NCBI GenBank assembly: GCA_034722055.1
Contig: JAYENL010000193.1
Location: 1 to 30,105, forward strand
From: Armatimonadota bacterium
Lineage (GTDB): Bacteria; Armatimonadota; Zipacnadia; Zipacnadales; UBA5352
Direction of reading: 5' to 3'
DNA length: 30,105 bases
How positions within the stretch are numbered: position 1 is the first letter of the stretch; each line of letters opens with the position of its first letter. Made by a program: the position numbers. This document shows positions 1 to 6,000 of the stretch, in pieces.

Positions 1-3000
1 CCGTCACAGCCACCGGCCCCGAGCCGGGCCCGCCTCCTCCGTGGGGCGTGCTGAAGGTCTTGTGCAGGTTCACCTGCACGGCGTCGAAGCCCATGTCCCC
101 GGGCCGGGCATGGCCCATGATGGCGTTGAGGTTCGCCCCGTCGCAGTAGAGAAGGGCGCCCGCTTCGTGGACGAGCCGGGCGATCTCCAGCACCTCGGTC
201 TCGAAGAGGCCCAGCGTGTTGGGGTTGGTGAGCATCATGGCGGCGACGTCGTCATCGAGGGCGTCTTCCAGCTCTCCGAGGTCCACCCGACCGTCATCCC
301 CGGATTGGAGCGCAGTGACGGTGTAGCCGCAGCGGGCCACCGAGGCCGGGTTGGTGCCGTGCGCGGTATCTGGGACGATGACCCGACTGCGCGTCTCGCC
401 GCGGCTGTCGTGGCAGGCCCTGAAGATCCGCAAGGAGGTGAACTCGCCCGCCGCCCCCGCCGGCGGCTGCAGCGACACCGCGTCCATGCCCAGGATCTCC
501 GCCAGCCAGCCCTCCAGTTGGTGCATCAGCCGCATGGCGCCCTGCGCGGCCTCCTCCGGCATCTCCGGGTGCAGCCGCGTCCAACCCGCCTCCGACGCGA
601 TGCTCTCATGCACCTTGGGGTTGTACTTCATGGTGCACGAGCCCAGCGGGTAGAAGTTGGCGTCCACGTTGAAGTTCTCACCGGCCAGTCGCGCGAAGTG
701 CTGCGCGATCTCCGGCTCGCTGATCCGCGGCAGATTCGGTGGCTCATCCCGCAGATGCGCCGCGGGGATCATCTCGTCCGGCGCGGCAGCCGGGACGTCG
801 GGCTGGGGCATGCGCGTGCAGCGCTTGCCCTCCTCAGAGATCCCGAAAAGCGTCGGCTCCGGCATCGTCGTCTCGTCCCTCTCTGTGGCTGGACCTGCTG
901 TCTACAGCCCGGCGACCTCCACCAGCGCTTCGATCTCAGCGCGCGTCCGCCGCTCAGTCACCGCCAGCAGCAGGCAGTCCTCCAGCTCGGGATACTCCCG
1001 CCCCAGCGCCGGCCCCACCAGGTAGCCGCGCTCGCACAGCTCCCTGACGGCCTCGTCGGCGGGGCGGTGGAGCTGGACCGCGAACTCGTTGACGAAGTCC
1101 CCGCTGAAGCGGGGCCGTCCGGGGGCGGCGGAGGAGTCGATCAGCTCGCGCAGATAATGTGCGCTCTGCGCGCTGAGCAGCGCCACCTCACGCAGCCCCT
1201 CGGGGCCCAGGGCGGCCAGATAGACGCAGGCGGCGAGGGCGCACAGGCCCTGGTTGGTGCAGATGTTGCTGGTGGCCCGGCCGCGGCGGATATGCTGCTC
1301 GCGGGTCTGCAGCGTCAGGCAGTAGGCCAGCGCGCCCTCGGCGTCAACGGTTCGGCCGACGACGCGCCCGGGCATGGAGCGCAGGAAGCGCTCCCGGCAG
1401 GCGAAGATACCCAGCAGCGGCCCCCCGAATCCCGGCGGCAGGCCCAACGGCTGGCCCTCGCCCACCACGATGTCCGCCTCATACTGCCCCGGCGGGGTCA
1501 GCAGCGCCAGCGAGATCGGCTCCACGGAGGCGACGAAGAGAGCGCCGGCGGCGTGCGCCAGCTCCGCGGCCGCCGCCATCTCCTCGATGACGCCGAAGTA
1601 GCTGGGCTGCTGGAGGCAGACGCAGGCCACGTCCTCATCCAGGGCGTCCTTCAGGGCGTCGAGGTCCATGCGACCGCTCTCGCCGCTGTAGGGCACCTCG
1701 GCGACCGTCACACCCGCCGCCTCGCAGTAGGTGCGGGTGGTGCGGCGGGCGGCGGGCGAGAGCGCCGCCGACACCAGGGCGCGGTCGCGGCCCGTGATCG
1801 AGGAGGCCATCAGCGCCGCCTCCCCCAGGCCCGTGGCCGCGTCGTAGAGGGAGGCGTTGGCGACGTCCATGGCCGTGAGCTCGCAGATCATCGTCTGGTA
1901 CTCGAACATGGCCTGCAGCGTTCCCTGCGAGGCCTCGGCCTGATAGGGCGTGTAGGGCGTCAGGAGCTCCGGGATGCTGATGACGCTCTGCACGATGGCG
2001 GGGATGAACCGGTCGTAGACGCCGCCTCCGGCGAAGCACACCAGCTCCTCCAGCGTCCGGTTCTCGGCCGCCAGCGCCCGCGCTCGGGACACCAGCTCCA
2101 TCTCGGTCAGCGGCCCGGGGATATCCGGCTGTGCCGTGGCGCGCACGGACTCGGGGATGAGCTCGAACAGCTCCTCAACCGAGCCGATCCCCATGTGCTC
2201 CAGCATCGTGCGTCGGTCGCGATCGGAGTTGGGCAGGTAGGCCACGGTCAGGCCTCCTCCTCGCAGACTCCAGCGTAGGAACCCGCGTCGAGGAGCTGCT
2301 CCATCTCCGAGATATCGCTCGGCGCGACTGCGATCATCCACGCCCCCCAGGGGTCCTCGGCGATCTGGTCGAGGTCATCTATCAGCCCCTCGTTGGCCTC
2401 TGTGACCTCCCCGCTGATGGGGGCGAAGAGCTCGGCCACGGCCTTCACGCTCTCGATCTCGCCGAAGGGGGCGCCCTGCGAGACCGGCGTTGAGGGCTCG
2501 GGGAGATCGAGGAAGATGACGTCGCCGAGCTGCTCCATGGCGAAGGCCGTGATCCCCACGCGCACGAGCTCACCATCCTGCATGGCCCACTCATGCGTCT
2601 CGGTGTATCTGCGGTCGTCGGGAATCTGCATCGATCAGTCCTCCTGCAGGGCGCGGCTGGCGCTCCGAGGGTGTATTACGCATCCCACTGCGATTCGCCT
2701 CCCGCTCGACCGAGAATCGCTCATCGCGGGAAGCGCCGAACCACCGTGGCGTGAACGTGGATCGGCATGCGGTCCCCCGGCGAGAGCTCCCCGGCCTCGC
2801 GGGCGGGGGCGGAGCGCTGGAGCTGCCTGGCCGGGAACAGGAGCAGCCCCGAGCCCTCAACCGCCACGCGGCGGTCCACCCAGGCCATGCCGACCTGGCG
2901 GCCCTCGACCGGCGCGCAGCTCGTGACGTGGCCCACGCACTCGCCCCTGCTCGACGCCACCGGATCGCCGGAGCGGATCGCCCGCACACCCTCCTCATCC

Positions 3001-6000
3001 ACGCGGAAACGCACGATCTGCTGGCTCCGGTCGGCCTCCCGCCGCAGGAGCGCGTCGCGCCCCACGAAGAAGGGCTTCTCGGCCGAGACGAAGCGGGAAT
3101 AGCCCGCGCCCGGTGGCGTGATCTCATGCGGCCCCGCCAGCTCGTGGCCGTAGAGCGGGAGGCCGGCCTCGATGCGCAGCGAGTCCCGCGCTCCCAGGCC
3201 GGCCGGCATCACGCCGCGGTCGTCGCCGACCTCCAGGAGGCGCCGCCACAGGGCCGCCGCATGGCTCGGGTGCACCATCAGCTCGTAGCCGATGGCCTCT
3301 CCCGTGTACCCGGTGCGAGAGACGAAGGCTGGTATATCCCCCAGCCTCGCCTCCAGGAACTCGAAGCGCCCCAGGGTCAGCGCCGCACAGGCCGCTCGAG
3401 GGGCGTCGGTGAGATCGCACAGCACCTCACCGGATGCCAGGCCCTGCAGGGCCATCACCATGAGCCGATCGTCGCCCGCGGAGCGCGCCGTAAGGTCACG
3501 GACCTGCACGCGCCCCGGCGCGCGGCGATGCGGCGCCGCCTCGGTGATGACGTACTCGCCCGCCGTCACGCCCGTCAGCCAGTCCAGCACGCGGGAGGCG
3601 TTGGCGGCGTTCACCACGGCCAGGAAGCAATCCTCGGCGCGACGATAGAGTATGATGTCATCCAGCGGCAGGCCGTCCGGTGTCAGCAGGTAGGTGTAGT
3701 GGCACTCGCCCCGCCGCAGCCGCTGCATCCGCCCGGTGGTGACCGCCTCCAGGAAGTCCGCCACCCGCTCCCCGGACAGCTCTACCACGCCCATGTGTCC
3801 GAGGTCGAACAGCCCTGCCGCCTCCCGCACGGCGGCGTGCTCCGCGGCCACCGATGTGTACCACCCGGGCATGCGCCATCCGGCGAACTCGATCAGGCGA
3901 GCGTCCAGGCGCTCGTGCTCCGCAATCAGCGGCGTTTCGCGCAGCTCCTCCTCTGTCTCCTCCGCCGGCTCGAAGCGCCGTGGTCGGGGCTCGAGCTTCG
4001 CGGCCTCCTCAATGTGCGCCTGGCCGACAAACCACGGCTTCTCGAGCGCGAAGAGCTCTGCGCACGCCCCACGGAACAGCGTCAGGCCGTCGGGAGCCTC
4101 AGCCTCACCGTCGAAGATCGGCAGGCCCGCCTCACGCCGTGCATCCGCGCTAACGGGGCCCGGCTCACCGCTGCGATTCTGCCGGACGGCGCCGAGGTCG
4201 TGGACCGTCACCGGGCCCGCCAGACTCCGGTGGGGATCCTCCACGTCGCAGAGTGCGGCGCCAGCGCTCAGCCCCCGAAGCCACGCCCCCACCCGGGAGT
4301 GCCGCTGCAGGTGAGTATACAGCAGCCACCTCGATGGCGTCTCGGACGAGCGGCGGACCACCACGTCATCGATCAGCGTCCCGTCAGGCGCCAACAGGAG
4401 CGTCTGAGCGCTCTCGCCGGGCGAGAGGTCGCCCACCCGGCCCGTCGCGGCCTGGTCGAGGAACATGGAGGCGCCGATGCCTTGGACCGCCAGCAGGCCC
4501 ACCTCCCCGCACGCGAACAGGGGATGCTCCTGCACCGCCTGCGCGAGTTCCTCCGGAGCGGCCGCCTCTCGTGAGGGCGCCGCCGCGCCTGCCAGCCCCT
4601 CGGCGATGTCCCGCACCTGAGGCCGGATCCCGGCGAGCGCATCGATCGCGATGCGCGCCTCCGCAGGCCCCTTCGGCATGGTCGGGGACGCCGCCGGTCG
4701 GGCAGCGCTCAGCGCCGCCGCGACGCACTCGCCGACCCGCGCCGCGTCCTCGTCGGTGGCATCCACGTGCGCCAGCCAGGTGGCATCGAGCATCAGGGCG
4801 CCACCATCCCGGTCATCGCGGAACCCGGCGATGATTCCGGCAGCCACCAGGATCCGTGCCAGCGCTTCCGCCACCATCGTCTCGCCGGACTCGGCCGCGA
4901 GCGCCGCGGCCTCGATGACGCAGAGGTGCGTATCCGTGCCCTGAGCTGCCTCCAGCTCGCCGCAGAGCCTCCGCGCGCATGATGCGATGCGGGCCTGGAG
5001 CCGTCGGAACTGCTTGCTGTCGGCCCATGCGAATGCCTCCGCCATCGCGGCCAGACGTCCGGCGTCAGGGGCCTGTCTTCGCAGCGAGCGCCCTGCCGCC
5101 CGCGCGAGATCGTGATGGGCCGTAACGATCCCCGCGCCACTGGGCCCGCACAGCGTCCCGTGGGTCGTGAAGGTCACCGCGTCGGCCAGGCCCACCGGAC
5201 CCGGGCACTCACCGGCCATCACCAGGCCAGCGGCCTGTCCCAGCTCCGCCACCAGCAGGCAGTCGCCGACGCCCTCGCGGATCTCGCCCAGCCGGCGCCA
5301 GTCAGGCATCCGCGGCGATCCGTCGCCTCCGGCGATCAGCACCTCCGGCCGATGCTCGCGGACAAGCTCCTCGACGCGCTGGTACTCGACCCCCCCGCAG
5401 TCGGCCCTCAGAACGTCGTCGCCGGGGCGGATCACGAGGTCCCCGGCGGGGCCTCGGCCATCGAGACGGGTCGCGATGTCCAGCACCGGGCGCTCGCCGC
5501 GGCAGACGCCGTCCAGCACTGCACGCAGGGCCTGCCGCTCCGTGGACGCGCGGAGGCTCACGTGCAGTCTCTCGGCTGGGATGTCGGGGGTCGCGAAGCG
5601 TCGGGCGCAGGCCCAGCGGGCCGCCATCTCCAGCAGCTCCGCGGGATGCCCCCCTCCGCTCGGTCCGGCATCCGCGAGCAAGGGATCCGCTGGGCCGGCC
5701 AGCCGTGCCAGCGCGTCCGCCGCGTCCTCGCTGCCAATCCGAACAGGAGGCCTGGAGCCGGCCTGCGCGGCAGCCGGGACCGCCGAGAGAGCCTCCCGGA
5801 CCGGCTTCGCCAGCACGTGCAGCTCCGGCGAAAGCAGCAGGCAGCCCTCGGTCGCAACCCGGTCGAGCAGATCGCTAACGCCCGCAATCGCGTTCTCGGT
5901 CTGTTCCCACGCCACACTCATCACCGTCAGTCGGGCCTGCCGGAACTGGATCCTCGGGCACTCACCAGGTCCGAGGACGATTACCGCCATCCGGCGCCCG

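Follow-up and report, generated by a model that had tools for sequence, protein, structure and literature searches.

The window, a stretch of 30,105 nt, comes from the metagenome-assembled draft genome (330 contigs, 92.7% complete) of an uncultured bacterium labelled Armatimonadota. Its minus strand carries genes in the order gcvT-H-PA-PB, the first of which is a stop-free frame that places a serine hydroxymethyltransferase (SHMT)-like module and a partial T-protein copy (T') ahead of a complete T-protein domain (Table 1). The genome-wide survey's note had reported both the 1089-residue frame and the downstream GcvH, GcvPA and GcvPB genes, and all were recovered here. The longest gcvPA frame overlaps gcvH, so that its true start probably lies later. 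The gcvPB frame, which resembles class-V aminotransferases, shares 50–76% identity with GcvPB genes of other loci and 73–76% with the gene that comes after gcvPA in loci from the same family.

Table 1. Features of the fused gene and its operon, with positions in the window
Feature	Position	Strand	Remarks
Fused pseudo-SHMT / T' / GcvT gene, whole frame	2721..5990	-	1089 codons, stop-free; stop codon at 2721-2723
Probable true start, ATG (M24)	5919..5921	-	product 1066 aa
Pseudo-SHMT module, residues 24-440	4671..5921	-	SHMT fold; 3 of 15 active-site positions kept
Codon 278, GGG (Gly)	5157..5159	-	position of the PLP Schiff-base lysine, from alignments
T' module, residues 471-680	3951..4580	-	truncated, degenerate T-protein copy
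Complete T-protein (aminomethyltransferase) domain, residues 681-1089	2724..3950	-	409 aa; NCBIfam and structure matches
Codon 777 (Asp)	3660..3662	-	aligns with Asp97 of E. coli T-protein, which is replaced in PDB 3a8k (ET D97N)
gcvH	2248..2631	-	127 aa; Pfam GCV_H E 4.8e-34; lipoyl-lysine motif ESVKA
gcvPA, longest frame	902..2341	-	Pfam GDC-P E 2.7e-121
gcvPB, 5' part, open at the window edge	2..865	-	Pfam Aminotran_5 E 3.9e-9

The T domain looks functional, since it passes both NCBIfam GcvT cut-offs (NF001567, 302.5 bits against 300; TIGR00528, 247.1 bits against 235.85), keeps Asp97, is modelled with the T-protein fold, heads the gcvT-H-PA-PB operon and belongs to the only gene with a GCV_T match in this 92.7% complete genome. 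The Pfam GCV_T match reaches E 2.4e-77 over two stretches, the best at residues 688–965, and GCV_T_C at residues 991–1047 scores 25.1 bits, slightly below its cut-off of 25.9. The domain matches the solved GcvT 1yx2 by sequence at E 3.2e-58, and its model superposes on 1wos and 1yx2 with TM-scores of 0.89–0.92, normalised to the target. The partial second T-like segment reported previously is present and can be defined more sharply as a truncated T-protein copy found throughout the fused family. It retains the first sub-domain and an EAGLP...KPWFVGQ stretch; the middle sub-domain and C-terminal barrel are missing. It is 34% identical to the protein's own T domain over 136 aa (E 7.7e-14). Its Pfam GCV_T stretch covers 4224–4520, about residues 491–589 (E 9.9e-9), and its model (pLDDT 88.6) finds only GcvT-family chains among its best structural matches (1woo, E 1.7e-8).

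The derivation of the N-terminal module from SHMT is clear from several comparisons. The Pfam SHMT match was reproduced (E 3.9e-19, residues 196–365, model positions 151–341 of 399, above the gathering score), as was the BLASTP alignment of the canonical SHMT with residues 1–700 (32% identity over 205 aa, E 7e-19), in which TSTTHKTLRGP lies over TFTTHGTLCGP. The solved SHMT 5vmb is matched by sequence at E 2.9e-20, and the predicted model superposes on whole SHMT chains with TM-scores of 0.77–0.80, normalised to the target; the alignment behind this model consists mostly of intact relatives, with the dead clade contributing 5 of 123 rows including the query, so confidence in the fold of the dead module may be overstated. 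At the Schiff-base position 118 of 121 fused rows carry lysine and three carry glycine, in line with the earlier count, and the canonical SHMT also carries lysine. The damage is far wider than this one residue. In the studied protein 12 of 15 active-site positions are changed, with the same loss in three relatives at 41–70% identity, against 15 of 15 retained in the canonical SHMT and 12 aligned intact fusions. The Schiff-base lysine has become glycine, Asp200 glutamate and His126 arginine, and the phosphate-loop glycine, Tyr55, Glu57, Tyr65 and Arg363 are lost (E. coli GlyA numbering); the site table shows a change at every residue that holds the PLP ring, its phosphate or the carboxylate of the substrate. 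The NCBIfam SHMT model gives 76 bits, where its cut-off is 335. These comparisons support a catalytically dead, SHMT-derived pseudoenzyme, which would be expected to bind neither PLP nor substrate. The survey's claim of a non-catalytic module stands in this form; its attribution to a single K-to-G change does not. A small clade has the loss in common.

The architecture recurs in other bacteria. A search with residues 1–680 returned 196 proteins at E ≤ 1e-3, and the 120 listed among them, 774–1243 aa long, all carry PF01571 and PF00464, which bears out the fusion family proposed earlier. That it is undescribed also holds within our full-text literature searches, which found no published account of an SHMT–GcvT fusion. 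Almost all SHMT-T'-T members have an intact SHMT active site. Intact fusions occur in Anaerolineae and other Chloroflexota, in Bipolaricaulota and Myxococcota, and in the studied genome's own order (G039); all 25 named loci that could be read have THK, and one further locus has N at that site. In nine of the ten Chloroflexota and Bipolaricaulota genomes tested that encode an intact fusion, no other SHMT match lay above the cut-off.

What is new here is a decay series, leading from the intact fusion through a partly decayed and a dead form to deletion of the extension. In a T-domain tree of 31 rows the intact fusions (G039, P0136, P0005) are sister to a group uniting G052 with a cluster of dead fusions (the studied protein, G007, P0004) and six standalone gcvT genes from the studied genome's family, with supports of 100/99, 96/86 and 100/99. 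Along this nested series the retained SHMT positions fall from 15 of 15 in intact fusions to 6 in G052 and 2–3 in the dead group, and the standalone genes complete it. An AU test, for which the group was picked with the tree already in view, rejects a topology that keeps every fused row together and excludes the standalone ones (p 2.8e-5). The six standalone genes lie in gcvT-H-PA-PB operons, and stop codons or new starts are found immediately upstream of them.

On balance, the gene probably encodes a working glycine cleavage system T-protein that carries a vestigial pseudo-SHMT module from a bifunctional SHMT-T'-T ancestor. The C-terminal domain would transfer the aminomethyl group carried on GcvH's lipoyl arm to tetrahydrofolate (THF), yielding 5,10-methylene-THF and ammonia; the operon, the protein family and the conserved catalytic Asp suggest this reaction. 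The N-terminal 657 residues would be the remains of the ancestor, the SHMT part having kept its fold and lost the binding of PLP and substrate. Serine/glycine interconversion would then fall to the separate canonical GlyA that the survey had noted, which is encoded on another contig, and methylene-THF would have to diffuse to it. Historically, an intact fusion may have come to lie inside a gcv operon, its SHMT site may have decayed, as redundancy with GlyA permitted, and the module may then have been kept as a relic, as in the studied genome, or deleted, as in most of the family. The redundancy argument is not a clean one. A canonical SHMT accompanies the decayed fusion in three of four genomes (G000, G001 and G052), and none was found in G007 (90% complete, 8% contaminated), whose module is the most decayed, with 2 of 15 positions. 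Redundancy alone also does not force decay, since in G039 and in a Myxococcota genome a canonical SHMT coexists with an intact fusion.

A clearly less likely reading, to which we nevertheless give some weight, is that the dead module, together with T', has a selected non-catalytic role: it might pair two T domains as a dimerisation platform of SHMT type, offer other glycine-cleavage components a surface to dock on, or act as an allosteric sensor. Between G000 and G001 the 417 codons of the pseudo-SHMT give a dN/dS of 0.40 (dN 0.18, dS 0.46), clearly below 1; frame and predicted fold are retained in the studied protein, G001, G007 and P0004 at 41–70% identity; and the module, at 41–45% identity in dead pairs, is about as conserved as the T' module that the whole family carries (37–43%). 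Because this ratio is below 1 and the fold is kept at such identity, a role in folding the essential T domain, in oligomerisation or in regulation could be accommodated. The same genome pair, however, gives dN/dS values of 0.145 for a neighbouring gene and 0.08 for glyA, and non-synonymous change in the module is about 7.5 times that in the canonical SHMT (dN 0.181 against 0.024). Among intact pairs no part is better conserved than the SHMT module (56–77% identity against 43–65% for T), whereas in dead pairs the module falls to 41–45% and T stays at 63–66%. Substrate, folate and PLP contacts are nearly all changed, so that a sensor would find little left of the ancestral ligand site. Furthermore, the extension was found in only 3 of 18 genomes within the family, and the six genomes of the sister clade have the same operon, their T-protein being of the same lineage but lacking the extension. 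As these sister genomes have deleted the whole extension and kept the T-protein, the dead module appears probably dispensable. We favour a vestigial module that is weakly constrained, its constraint relaxed and weak purifying selection apparently keeping it foldable.

It is improbable that the first 2 kb are untranslated, with the real gene starting near residue 680 behind a pseudogene remnant held open by the rarity of stop codons at 70% G+C. Long chance frames do occur here: upstream of the ATG at 5990 this frame meets no stop for another 556 codons, as far as 7658, in DNA antisense to another gene. That stretch has a non-coding composition (GC3 0.69), in contrast to 0.84–0.90 within the gene and 0.84 in the frame of the module. 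The module also shows the dN/dS described above and aligns in a single frame with four relatives, namely G001, G007 and P0004 (70%, 43% and 41% identical to the studied protein) and G052; the translation has no Met between residues 640 and 706, and the contig's database record calls a product of 1066 aa. Composition, constraint and frame conservation thus indicate that the dead module is translated together with the T domain. The caveat, raised by the survey, that a long frame could hide a wrong start applies to the start codon itself and leaves the SHMT-like part coding. M24 is the more likely start, given the length in the record, the disorder predicted for residues 1–33 (pLDDT <50) and the fused-family alignment, which begins at about this residue; strain contigs diverge from the window just past the ATG at 5990.

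More doubtful still is the idea that the module remains an enzyme with an altered cofactor mode or reaction, such as PLP held with no Schiff base formed, or a reaction with folate alone. The SHMT fold is confidently predicted, and the studied protein, G001 and P0004 retain Thr226 and His228 of the THK motif, but 12 of the 15 positions, including the ligand-holding residues described above, are changed and the evolutionary rate is far above that of intact modules. The changes also differ within the dead clade, with Gly at position 228 in G007 and Gly or Thr at 229, which argues against a new conserved site. Chimeric assembly or sequencing error at the lysine codon is hardly credible even for a draft of so many contigs, since contigs from four runs of one study (the complete fused stretch within single contigs of two runs, pieces in two more, and one run possibly the source) have the same bases at codon 278 and no indel, and architecture and lysine loss are seen again in other genomes, at identities too low for the survey's worry about an error shared by near-identical entries.

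Compared with known systems, residues 681–1089 match the solved GcvT proteins of B. subtilis (1yx2), T. maritima (1wos, 1woo) and E. coli (3a8i) at E 3.2e-58 to 1.1e-43, with TM-scores of 0.86–0.92 normalised to the target, and share with them the family cut-offs, the Asp97 position and the place at the head of the operon. The studied protein differs in its extra N-terminal residues, in a C-terminal tail of about 40 residues common to the fused family, and in a T domain that falls in a separate fused-type clade from the ordinary standalone GcvT of other phyla (support 100/100). Residues 24–440 derive from SHMT, as represented by the GlyA structures 5vmb, 2dkj, 1kkj and 1dfo, by Pfam, sequence and model superposition, and depart from it in the missing PLP lysine, the lost active site and the low NCBIfam score. 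With the intact SHMT-T'-T fusions, whose entries are named GcvT or SHMT, the protein shares module order, the truncated T' copy and the T-domain clade, whereas they keep all SHMT positions. Gene context also differs, as 25 of 26 named loci of intact fusions have neither gcvH nor gcvP in the fetched flanks, while in the studied genome's order gcvH follows directly. A broader parallel is offered by dimethylglycine oxidase/dehydrogenase (1pj5, 4pab), sarcosine oxidase alpha (2gag) and TMAO demethylase (9q59), whose chains are among the structural and sequence matches and in which a THF-binding domain of GcvT fold follows a module handling the same one-carbon unit. The partner there, a flavin or other module, is active and feeds the folate site, whereas here it is an inactive module of PLP-enzyme fold, and the studied T domain is, as judged from its sequence, a true glycine-cleavage T-protein and partner of GcvH.

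The fused gene is the T-protein gene of this genome, by sequence and by operon context, and its product is, judged from the residues that it retains, a decayed member by descent of a family of SHMT-GcvT fusions and no bifunctional enzyme. The protein exceeds both curated NCBIfam cut-offs for GcvT (NF001567, 302.5 bits against 300; TIGR00528, 247.1 against 235.85), and Pfam GCV_T scores 260 bits (cut-off 25.6) over two stretches with E 2.4e-77, while the C-terminal GCV_T_C match falls slightly below its cut-off. The T domain is predicted to take up the three-domain T-protein fold with pLDDT mostly above 90, and in a Foldseek comparison the model matches the solved T-proteins 1wos, 1yx2 and 3a8i with TM 0.86-0.92 normalised to the target. 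The catalytic aspartate is kept at the position of E. coli Asp97 (3a8i chain A), a residue whose D97N mutant is named in the title of PDB entry 3a8k. On the same strand, gcvH, gcvPA and then the start of gcvPB lie 3' of the fused gene, the encoded GcvH carries the lipoylation motif ESVKA, and in this 92.7% complete genome GCV_T is confined to the fused gene, with no other match. The T domain would pass the aminomethyl group from GcvH to THF. An Rfam scan of the whole window returned no family that reaches its gathering score, and no glycine riboswitch.

Members of the fusion family carry SHMT, a middle module (T') and a complete T-protein in one frame, and the window protein has the same order. 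As in the genome-wide survey's note, homologues of residues 1-680 recur: a word-indexed search gave 196 proteins (E<=1e-3), of which 120 were listed; these have lengths of 774-1243 aa, all with PF01571 and PF00464. An exhaustive HMMER search of 1.84 billion representatives gave 1582 proteins at E<=1e-3, of which 93 reach E<=1e-30. T' shares 34% identity over 136 aa with the T domain of the same protein (E 7.7e-14). Modelled by itself, with 74 relatives, it reaches pLDDT 88.6, and its best PDB matches are all GcvT-family chains (1woo, E 1.7e-8). It is a truncated T-protein copy, which in the alignment retains the first sub-domain and the EAGLP...KPWFVGQ stretch without the middle sub-domain and C-terminal barrel, and it is more complete in longer members of the family. 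A model of the whole protein, predicted from an alignment of the window protein with three genes from loci and 119 of the 120 listed proteins (the 99% copy P0003 excluded), reached pLDDT 88.1 and pTM 0.87.

Features of the fused gene and of its surroundings, with residues counted from ATG 5990
Feature	Nucleotides	Strand	Residues	Detail
Gene as read from ATG 5990	2721-5990	minus	1-1089	1089 codons
Probable start codon, M24	5919-5921	minus	24	product of 1066 aa
Strain differences after ATG 5990	5982-5990			contigs of three runs, one study
Pseudo-SHMT module		minus	24-440	
Pfam SHMT match (PF00464)		minus	196-365	model positions 151-341 of 399 only
Position of the PLP lysine		minus	278	Gly, codon GGG
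T'		minus	471-680	
Weaker GCV_T stretch	4224-4520	minus	about 491-589	
Block of six substitutions	4314-4320			strain variation in one run, contigs of the same study
Complete T domain		minus	681-1089	
Best GCV_T stretch (PF01571)		minus	688-965	
Catalytic aspartate		minus	777	
GCV_T_C match (PF08669)		minus	991-1047	25.1 bits, cut-off 25.9
Open frame upstream of ATG 5990	5991-7658	minus		556 further codons
Divergent neighbour	6186-7517	plus		443 aa
Carbohydrate-use region	10312-30097			

The minus-strand frame is open from 7658 to 2721, and the start at ATG 5990 adopted in the survey's note was dropped for M24, probably the true start. The database record for the same contig has the 1066-aa product, the family alignment starts at M24, the model is disordered over residues 1-33, and contigs of near-identical strains diverge from the window sequence immediately after ATG 5990, as would fit untranslated first codons. 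The open stretch further upstream, which runs antisense through the neighbouring plus-strand gene, is by composition a non-coding chance frame in G+C-rich DNA, open because stop codons seldom occur at about 70% G+C: it has a GC3 of 0.69 and a GC1 of 0.80, compared with a GC3 of 0.84 in the SHMT-like part, 0.85 in the middle and 0.90 in the T part of the gene, and 0.88-0.90 in gcvH and gcvPA. The gene is covered by contigs from four runs of one study, one of which may be the source of the window, with no indel and with codon 278 unchanged; the lysine loss at this codon is not a sequencing error. All four are DNA runs, and no RNA run was among those listed for the gene.

That lysine loss had been the basis for calling the SHMT-like part non-catalytic, and the decay goes well beyond it. 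Pfam SHMT matches part of the module with E 3.9e-19 and 69 bits (cut-off 27), and the NCBIfam SHMT model NF000586, whose cut-off is 335 bits, scores 76.3 bits. The reported BLASTP match of the canonical SHMT (contig 12) to residues 1-700 was reproduced, with 32% identity over 205 aa, E 7e-19 and THK opposite THG, so that Gly278 aligns with the PLP Schiff-base lysine of T-T-H-K. In a MAFFT alignment with the canonical SHMT, this column holds lysine in 118 and glycine in three of 121 fused rows, the three being the window protein, its 99% copy and the database protein P0004. Fifteen active-site positions were marked on the canonical SHMT; they are contacts to the PLP ring, phosphate, folate and substrate carboxylate, and include Y55, E57, Y65, S97, G98, H126, S175, D200, H203 and R363 in E. 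coli GlyA numbering. This numbering agrees with the B. stearothermophilus SHMT mutants named in PDB titles (Y51, E53, Y60, Y61, S172 and K226). The canonical SHMT and 12 intact fusions keep all 15 positions, compared with three in the window protein, three in the fusion of G001 (a genome of the same genus; 70% identical), three in P0004 (41%) and two in the fusion of G007 (same family, another genus; 43%). Besides the Schiff-base lysine, the window protein has exchanged the pyridine-nitrogen Asp for Glu, the stacking His for Arg, the phosphate-loop Gly for Glu and the carboxylate-binding Arg for Met, and has lost Tyr55, Glu57 and Tyr65. The change from K to G is real as reported, and is one of many. 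The N-terminal 657 residues would carry out no SHMT chemistry. The module nevertheless is predicted to superpose on whole solved SHMT chains with TM 0.77-0.80 normalised to the target over about 465 columns, in a model whose underlying alignment consists mostly of intact relatives. A homodimer prediction for residues 24-470, run without controls, scored 0.00 and 0.01, the mark being 0.42, and speaks neither for nor against dimerisation.

In a scan of species-representative genomes, tblastn found the fused gene in 26 of the 80 loci kept, mostly in Anaerolineales, Anaerolineae and other Chloroflexota, with one each in Myxococcota, Ca. Roseilinea and Ca. Bipolaricaulota. T-T-H-K is present in 25 of the 26, the remaining locus being unreadable, with N in the stored record. 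Ten fusion genomes (completeness not given) were searched with Pfam SHMT, and in nine of them matches over the cut-off are confined to fused genes; the tenth has one additional divergent match of 175 bits. In two of the ten, G041 and G042, gcvH-PA-PB lies elsewhere in the genome and the fused gene is the only full GcvT. Since the only SHMT and the only full GcvT of such organisms are the fused gene, the intact fusion, as far as gene content tells, must serve as both housekeeping SHMT and T-protein. Both folate enzymes on one chain could then share a pool of methylene-THF and THF and convert two glycines to serine, CO2 and ammonia, or the reverse. Another of the ten, an Anaerolineales genome, has two full-length fused genes, on contigs 14 and 7, whose frames measure 1040 and 1090 aa; it gave no match to a canonical SHMT. 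Across the fused rows, Cys replaces the Arg of the canonical T-H-K-T-L-R-G-P in 116 of 121, and other residues also occur there in named loci. Five of 100 aligned family representatives keep the PLP lysine, Asp200 and His126 and have Tyr at His228, with Tyr55/Tyr65 and Ser35 changed in most; these may form a sub-family with altered folate or substrate handling.

The distribution and phylogeny of the T domain place the window protein within a series of decay. Among 41 genomes of the window's order, the N-terminal 680 residues were found only in the window's genome, G001, G007 and G039, and within the window's family in three of 18 genomes. Of 67 genomes of the order, 17 have the T domain at E<=1e-30, comprising 13 of the 18 family genomes (the window's own counted), the fused G039 and G052, and two other GcvT-domain proteins of about 950 aa. 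The G039 fusion is intact (15/15); that of G052, followed by gcvH-PA, keeps 6/15 with lysine replaced by threonine. Other members of the family have a standalone gcvT. Six of these loci were examined: the gene shares 53-60% identity with the T domain of the window protein, belongs to a gcvT-H-PA-PB operon, and begins at a start of its own with stop codons upstream. Two trees were built from hand-chosen rows, a quick one of 68 (40 loci, 27 proteins and the window) and a careful one of 31 of those rows plus G052 (called the 31-row tree here). T domains of the fused type and the standalone ones of the family form a clade distinct from the ordinary GcvT of other phyla, with SH-aLRT support of 100 in the 68-row tree and 100/100 in the 31-row tree, and the T domain of the window protein falls in this fused-type clade. 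The careful tree joins a group of G039, P0136 and P0005 to one in which G052 is sister to the window, G007 and P0004 plus the six standalone genes (supports 100/99, 96/86 and 100/99), the standalone genes themselves forming one group (94/90). An AU test rejects, at p 2.8e-5, a tree whose fused rows all form one group that excludes the standalone genes, a group named after the tree had been seen.

The simplest reading, whose direction rests on the outgroup root, runs from intact fusion through loss of the SHMT site to deletion. An intact fusion would have stood within the gcv operon, the SHMT site would have been lost once, before the split of G052 and the window's family, and decay would have gone on until one sub-lineage deleted SHMT and T' entirely. 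The tree-ordered series from 15/15 through 6/15 and 2-3/15 to deletion would illustrate how a fused enzyme dissolves once a stand-alone paralogue makes one half redundant, and suggests that a fused-type T domain can work without its partner modules. In another branch of the fusion family, P0211 (1090 aa) keeps 3/15 positions, has lysine replaced by arginine and is sister to the intact P0008 (98/95), a second, independent decay of the SHMT module. P0136, a 721-aa protein on a 138-kb contig in the intact G039/P0005 clade, consists of T' and T without the SHMT part; its 90% cluster includes a 1136-aa member, and P0136 represents either a variant gene call or another partial loss.

Redundancy with a canonical SHMT fits as a permissive condition, neither clean nor sufficient. 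The separate normal SHMT of the survey's note is indeed kept in the window's genome as one canonical match of 523 bits over the full model, and G001 and G052 likewise have one beside a decayed fusion. The role is only permissive because none was found in G007 (90% complete, 8% contaminated), and because in G039 and the Myxococcota genome G043 the fusion is intact despite the presence of one.

The dead module is probably still translated, and it is under some constraint. Its frame is preserved in G001, G007, P0004 and G052 and its GC3 is coding-like. Between the window's genome and G001, dN/dS (Nei-Gojobori, own script) is 0.40 over the 417 codons of the SHMT-like module (dN 0.181, dS 0.456), 0.145 for the neighbouring gene and 0.08 for the canonical SHMT. 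With a dN of 0.181 against 0.024, the dead module changes about 7.5 times faster at non-synonymous sites than the working SHMT, yet far slower than neutral sequence. The SHMT module is the best conserved part in intact pairs (56-77% identity, compared with 43-65% for T); dead pairs show the inverted pattern, 41-45% for the module and 63-66% for T. Because sister genomes manage without the module and because it evolves fast, we favour, on balance, a vestigial module kept foldable through its attachment to an essential T domain. That it retains a structural or regulatory role, as the preserved frame and sub-neutral rate would also allow, seems less likely given the same two observations. Slightly less likely again is a composite account that makes the window gene one stage in the full history of a bifunctional folate enzyme: many Chloroflexota use SHMT-T'-T as housekeeping SHMT and T-protein, the site died in a GlyA-bearing lineage, and the dead module was kept as part of how the T-protein works; there, the module could provide an SHMT-type dimer core bringing two T domains together or docking GcvH or GcvP, or a sensor tuning glycine cleavage. 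On that account the glycine cleavage system would contain a pseudoenzyme domain that has taken on a new job, and intact relatives would be natural models of direct methylene-THF hand-over between two enzymes.

The divergent neighbour matches no Pfam family; its start resembles a signal peptide, and it contains an acidic low-complexity stretch. G001 has a conserved copy (85-89% identity), and none was found beside gcvT in the other relatives examined. The carbohydrate-use region is mostly devoted to that function and includes a sulfatase and three large proteins: one of 1367 aa with GH2 and CBM60, one of 1158 aa with CBM9 and galactose-binding-like domains, and one of 888 aa with a 3-keto-disaccharide-hydrolase-like domain. 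A transaldolase, a GHMP kinase, a SIS-domain protein and a BadF/BcrA-type ATPase are also encoded there; no one-carbon metabolism genes were seen in it.

In their source records, relatives of the window protein go under the names GcvT, SHMT or glycine hydroxymethyltransferase. In the dead clade (the window, G001, G007 and P0004) an SHMT annotation is wrong and would double-count the enzyme. Many Chloroflexota have no SHMT other than the fused gene, and overlooking it would therefore make a genome look falsely auxotrophic for glycine and serine. For the engineering of one-carbon pathways that combine glycine cleavage or synthase with SHMT, the useful candidates are the intact relatives, not the window gene. 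A full-text literature search, in a resource covering few subscription-journal papers, returned no paper on a natural SHMT-GcvT fusion; PMC8879981 describes synthetic fusions of methanol-pathway enzymes, which are other proteins. As to gene order, 25 of the 26 fused loci have no gcvH or gcvP within the fetched flanks, and in the remaining one, L046, these genes are on the opposite strand at a distance of about 4 kb. In the Anaerolineales genome G042 (contig 1, 2733454-2749117), gcvH-PA-PB lies about 10 kb from the fused gene and is not adjacent to it, whereas in the taxonomic order to which the window belongs gcvH directly follows the fused gene.
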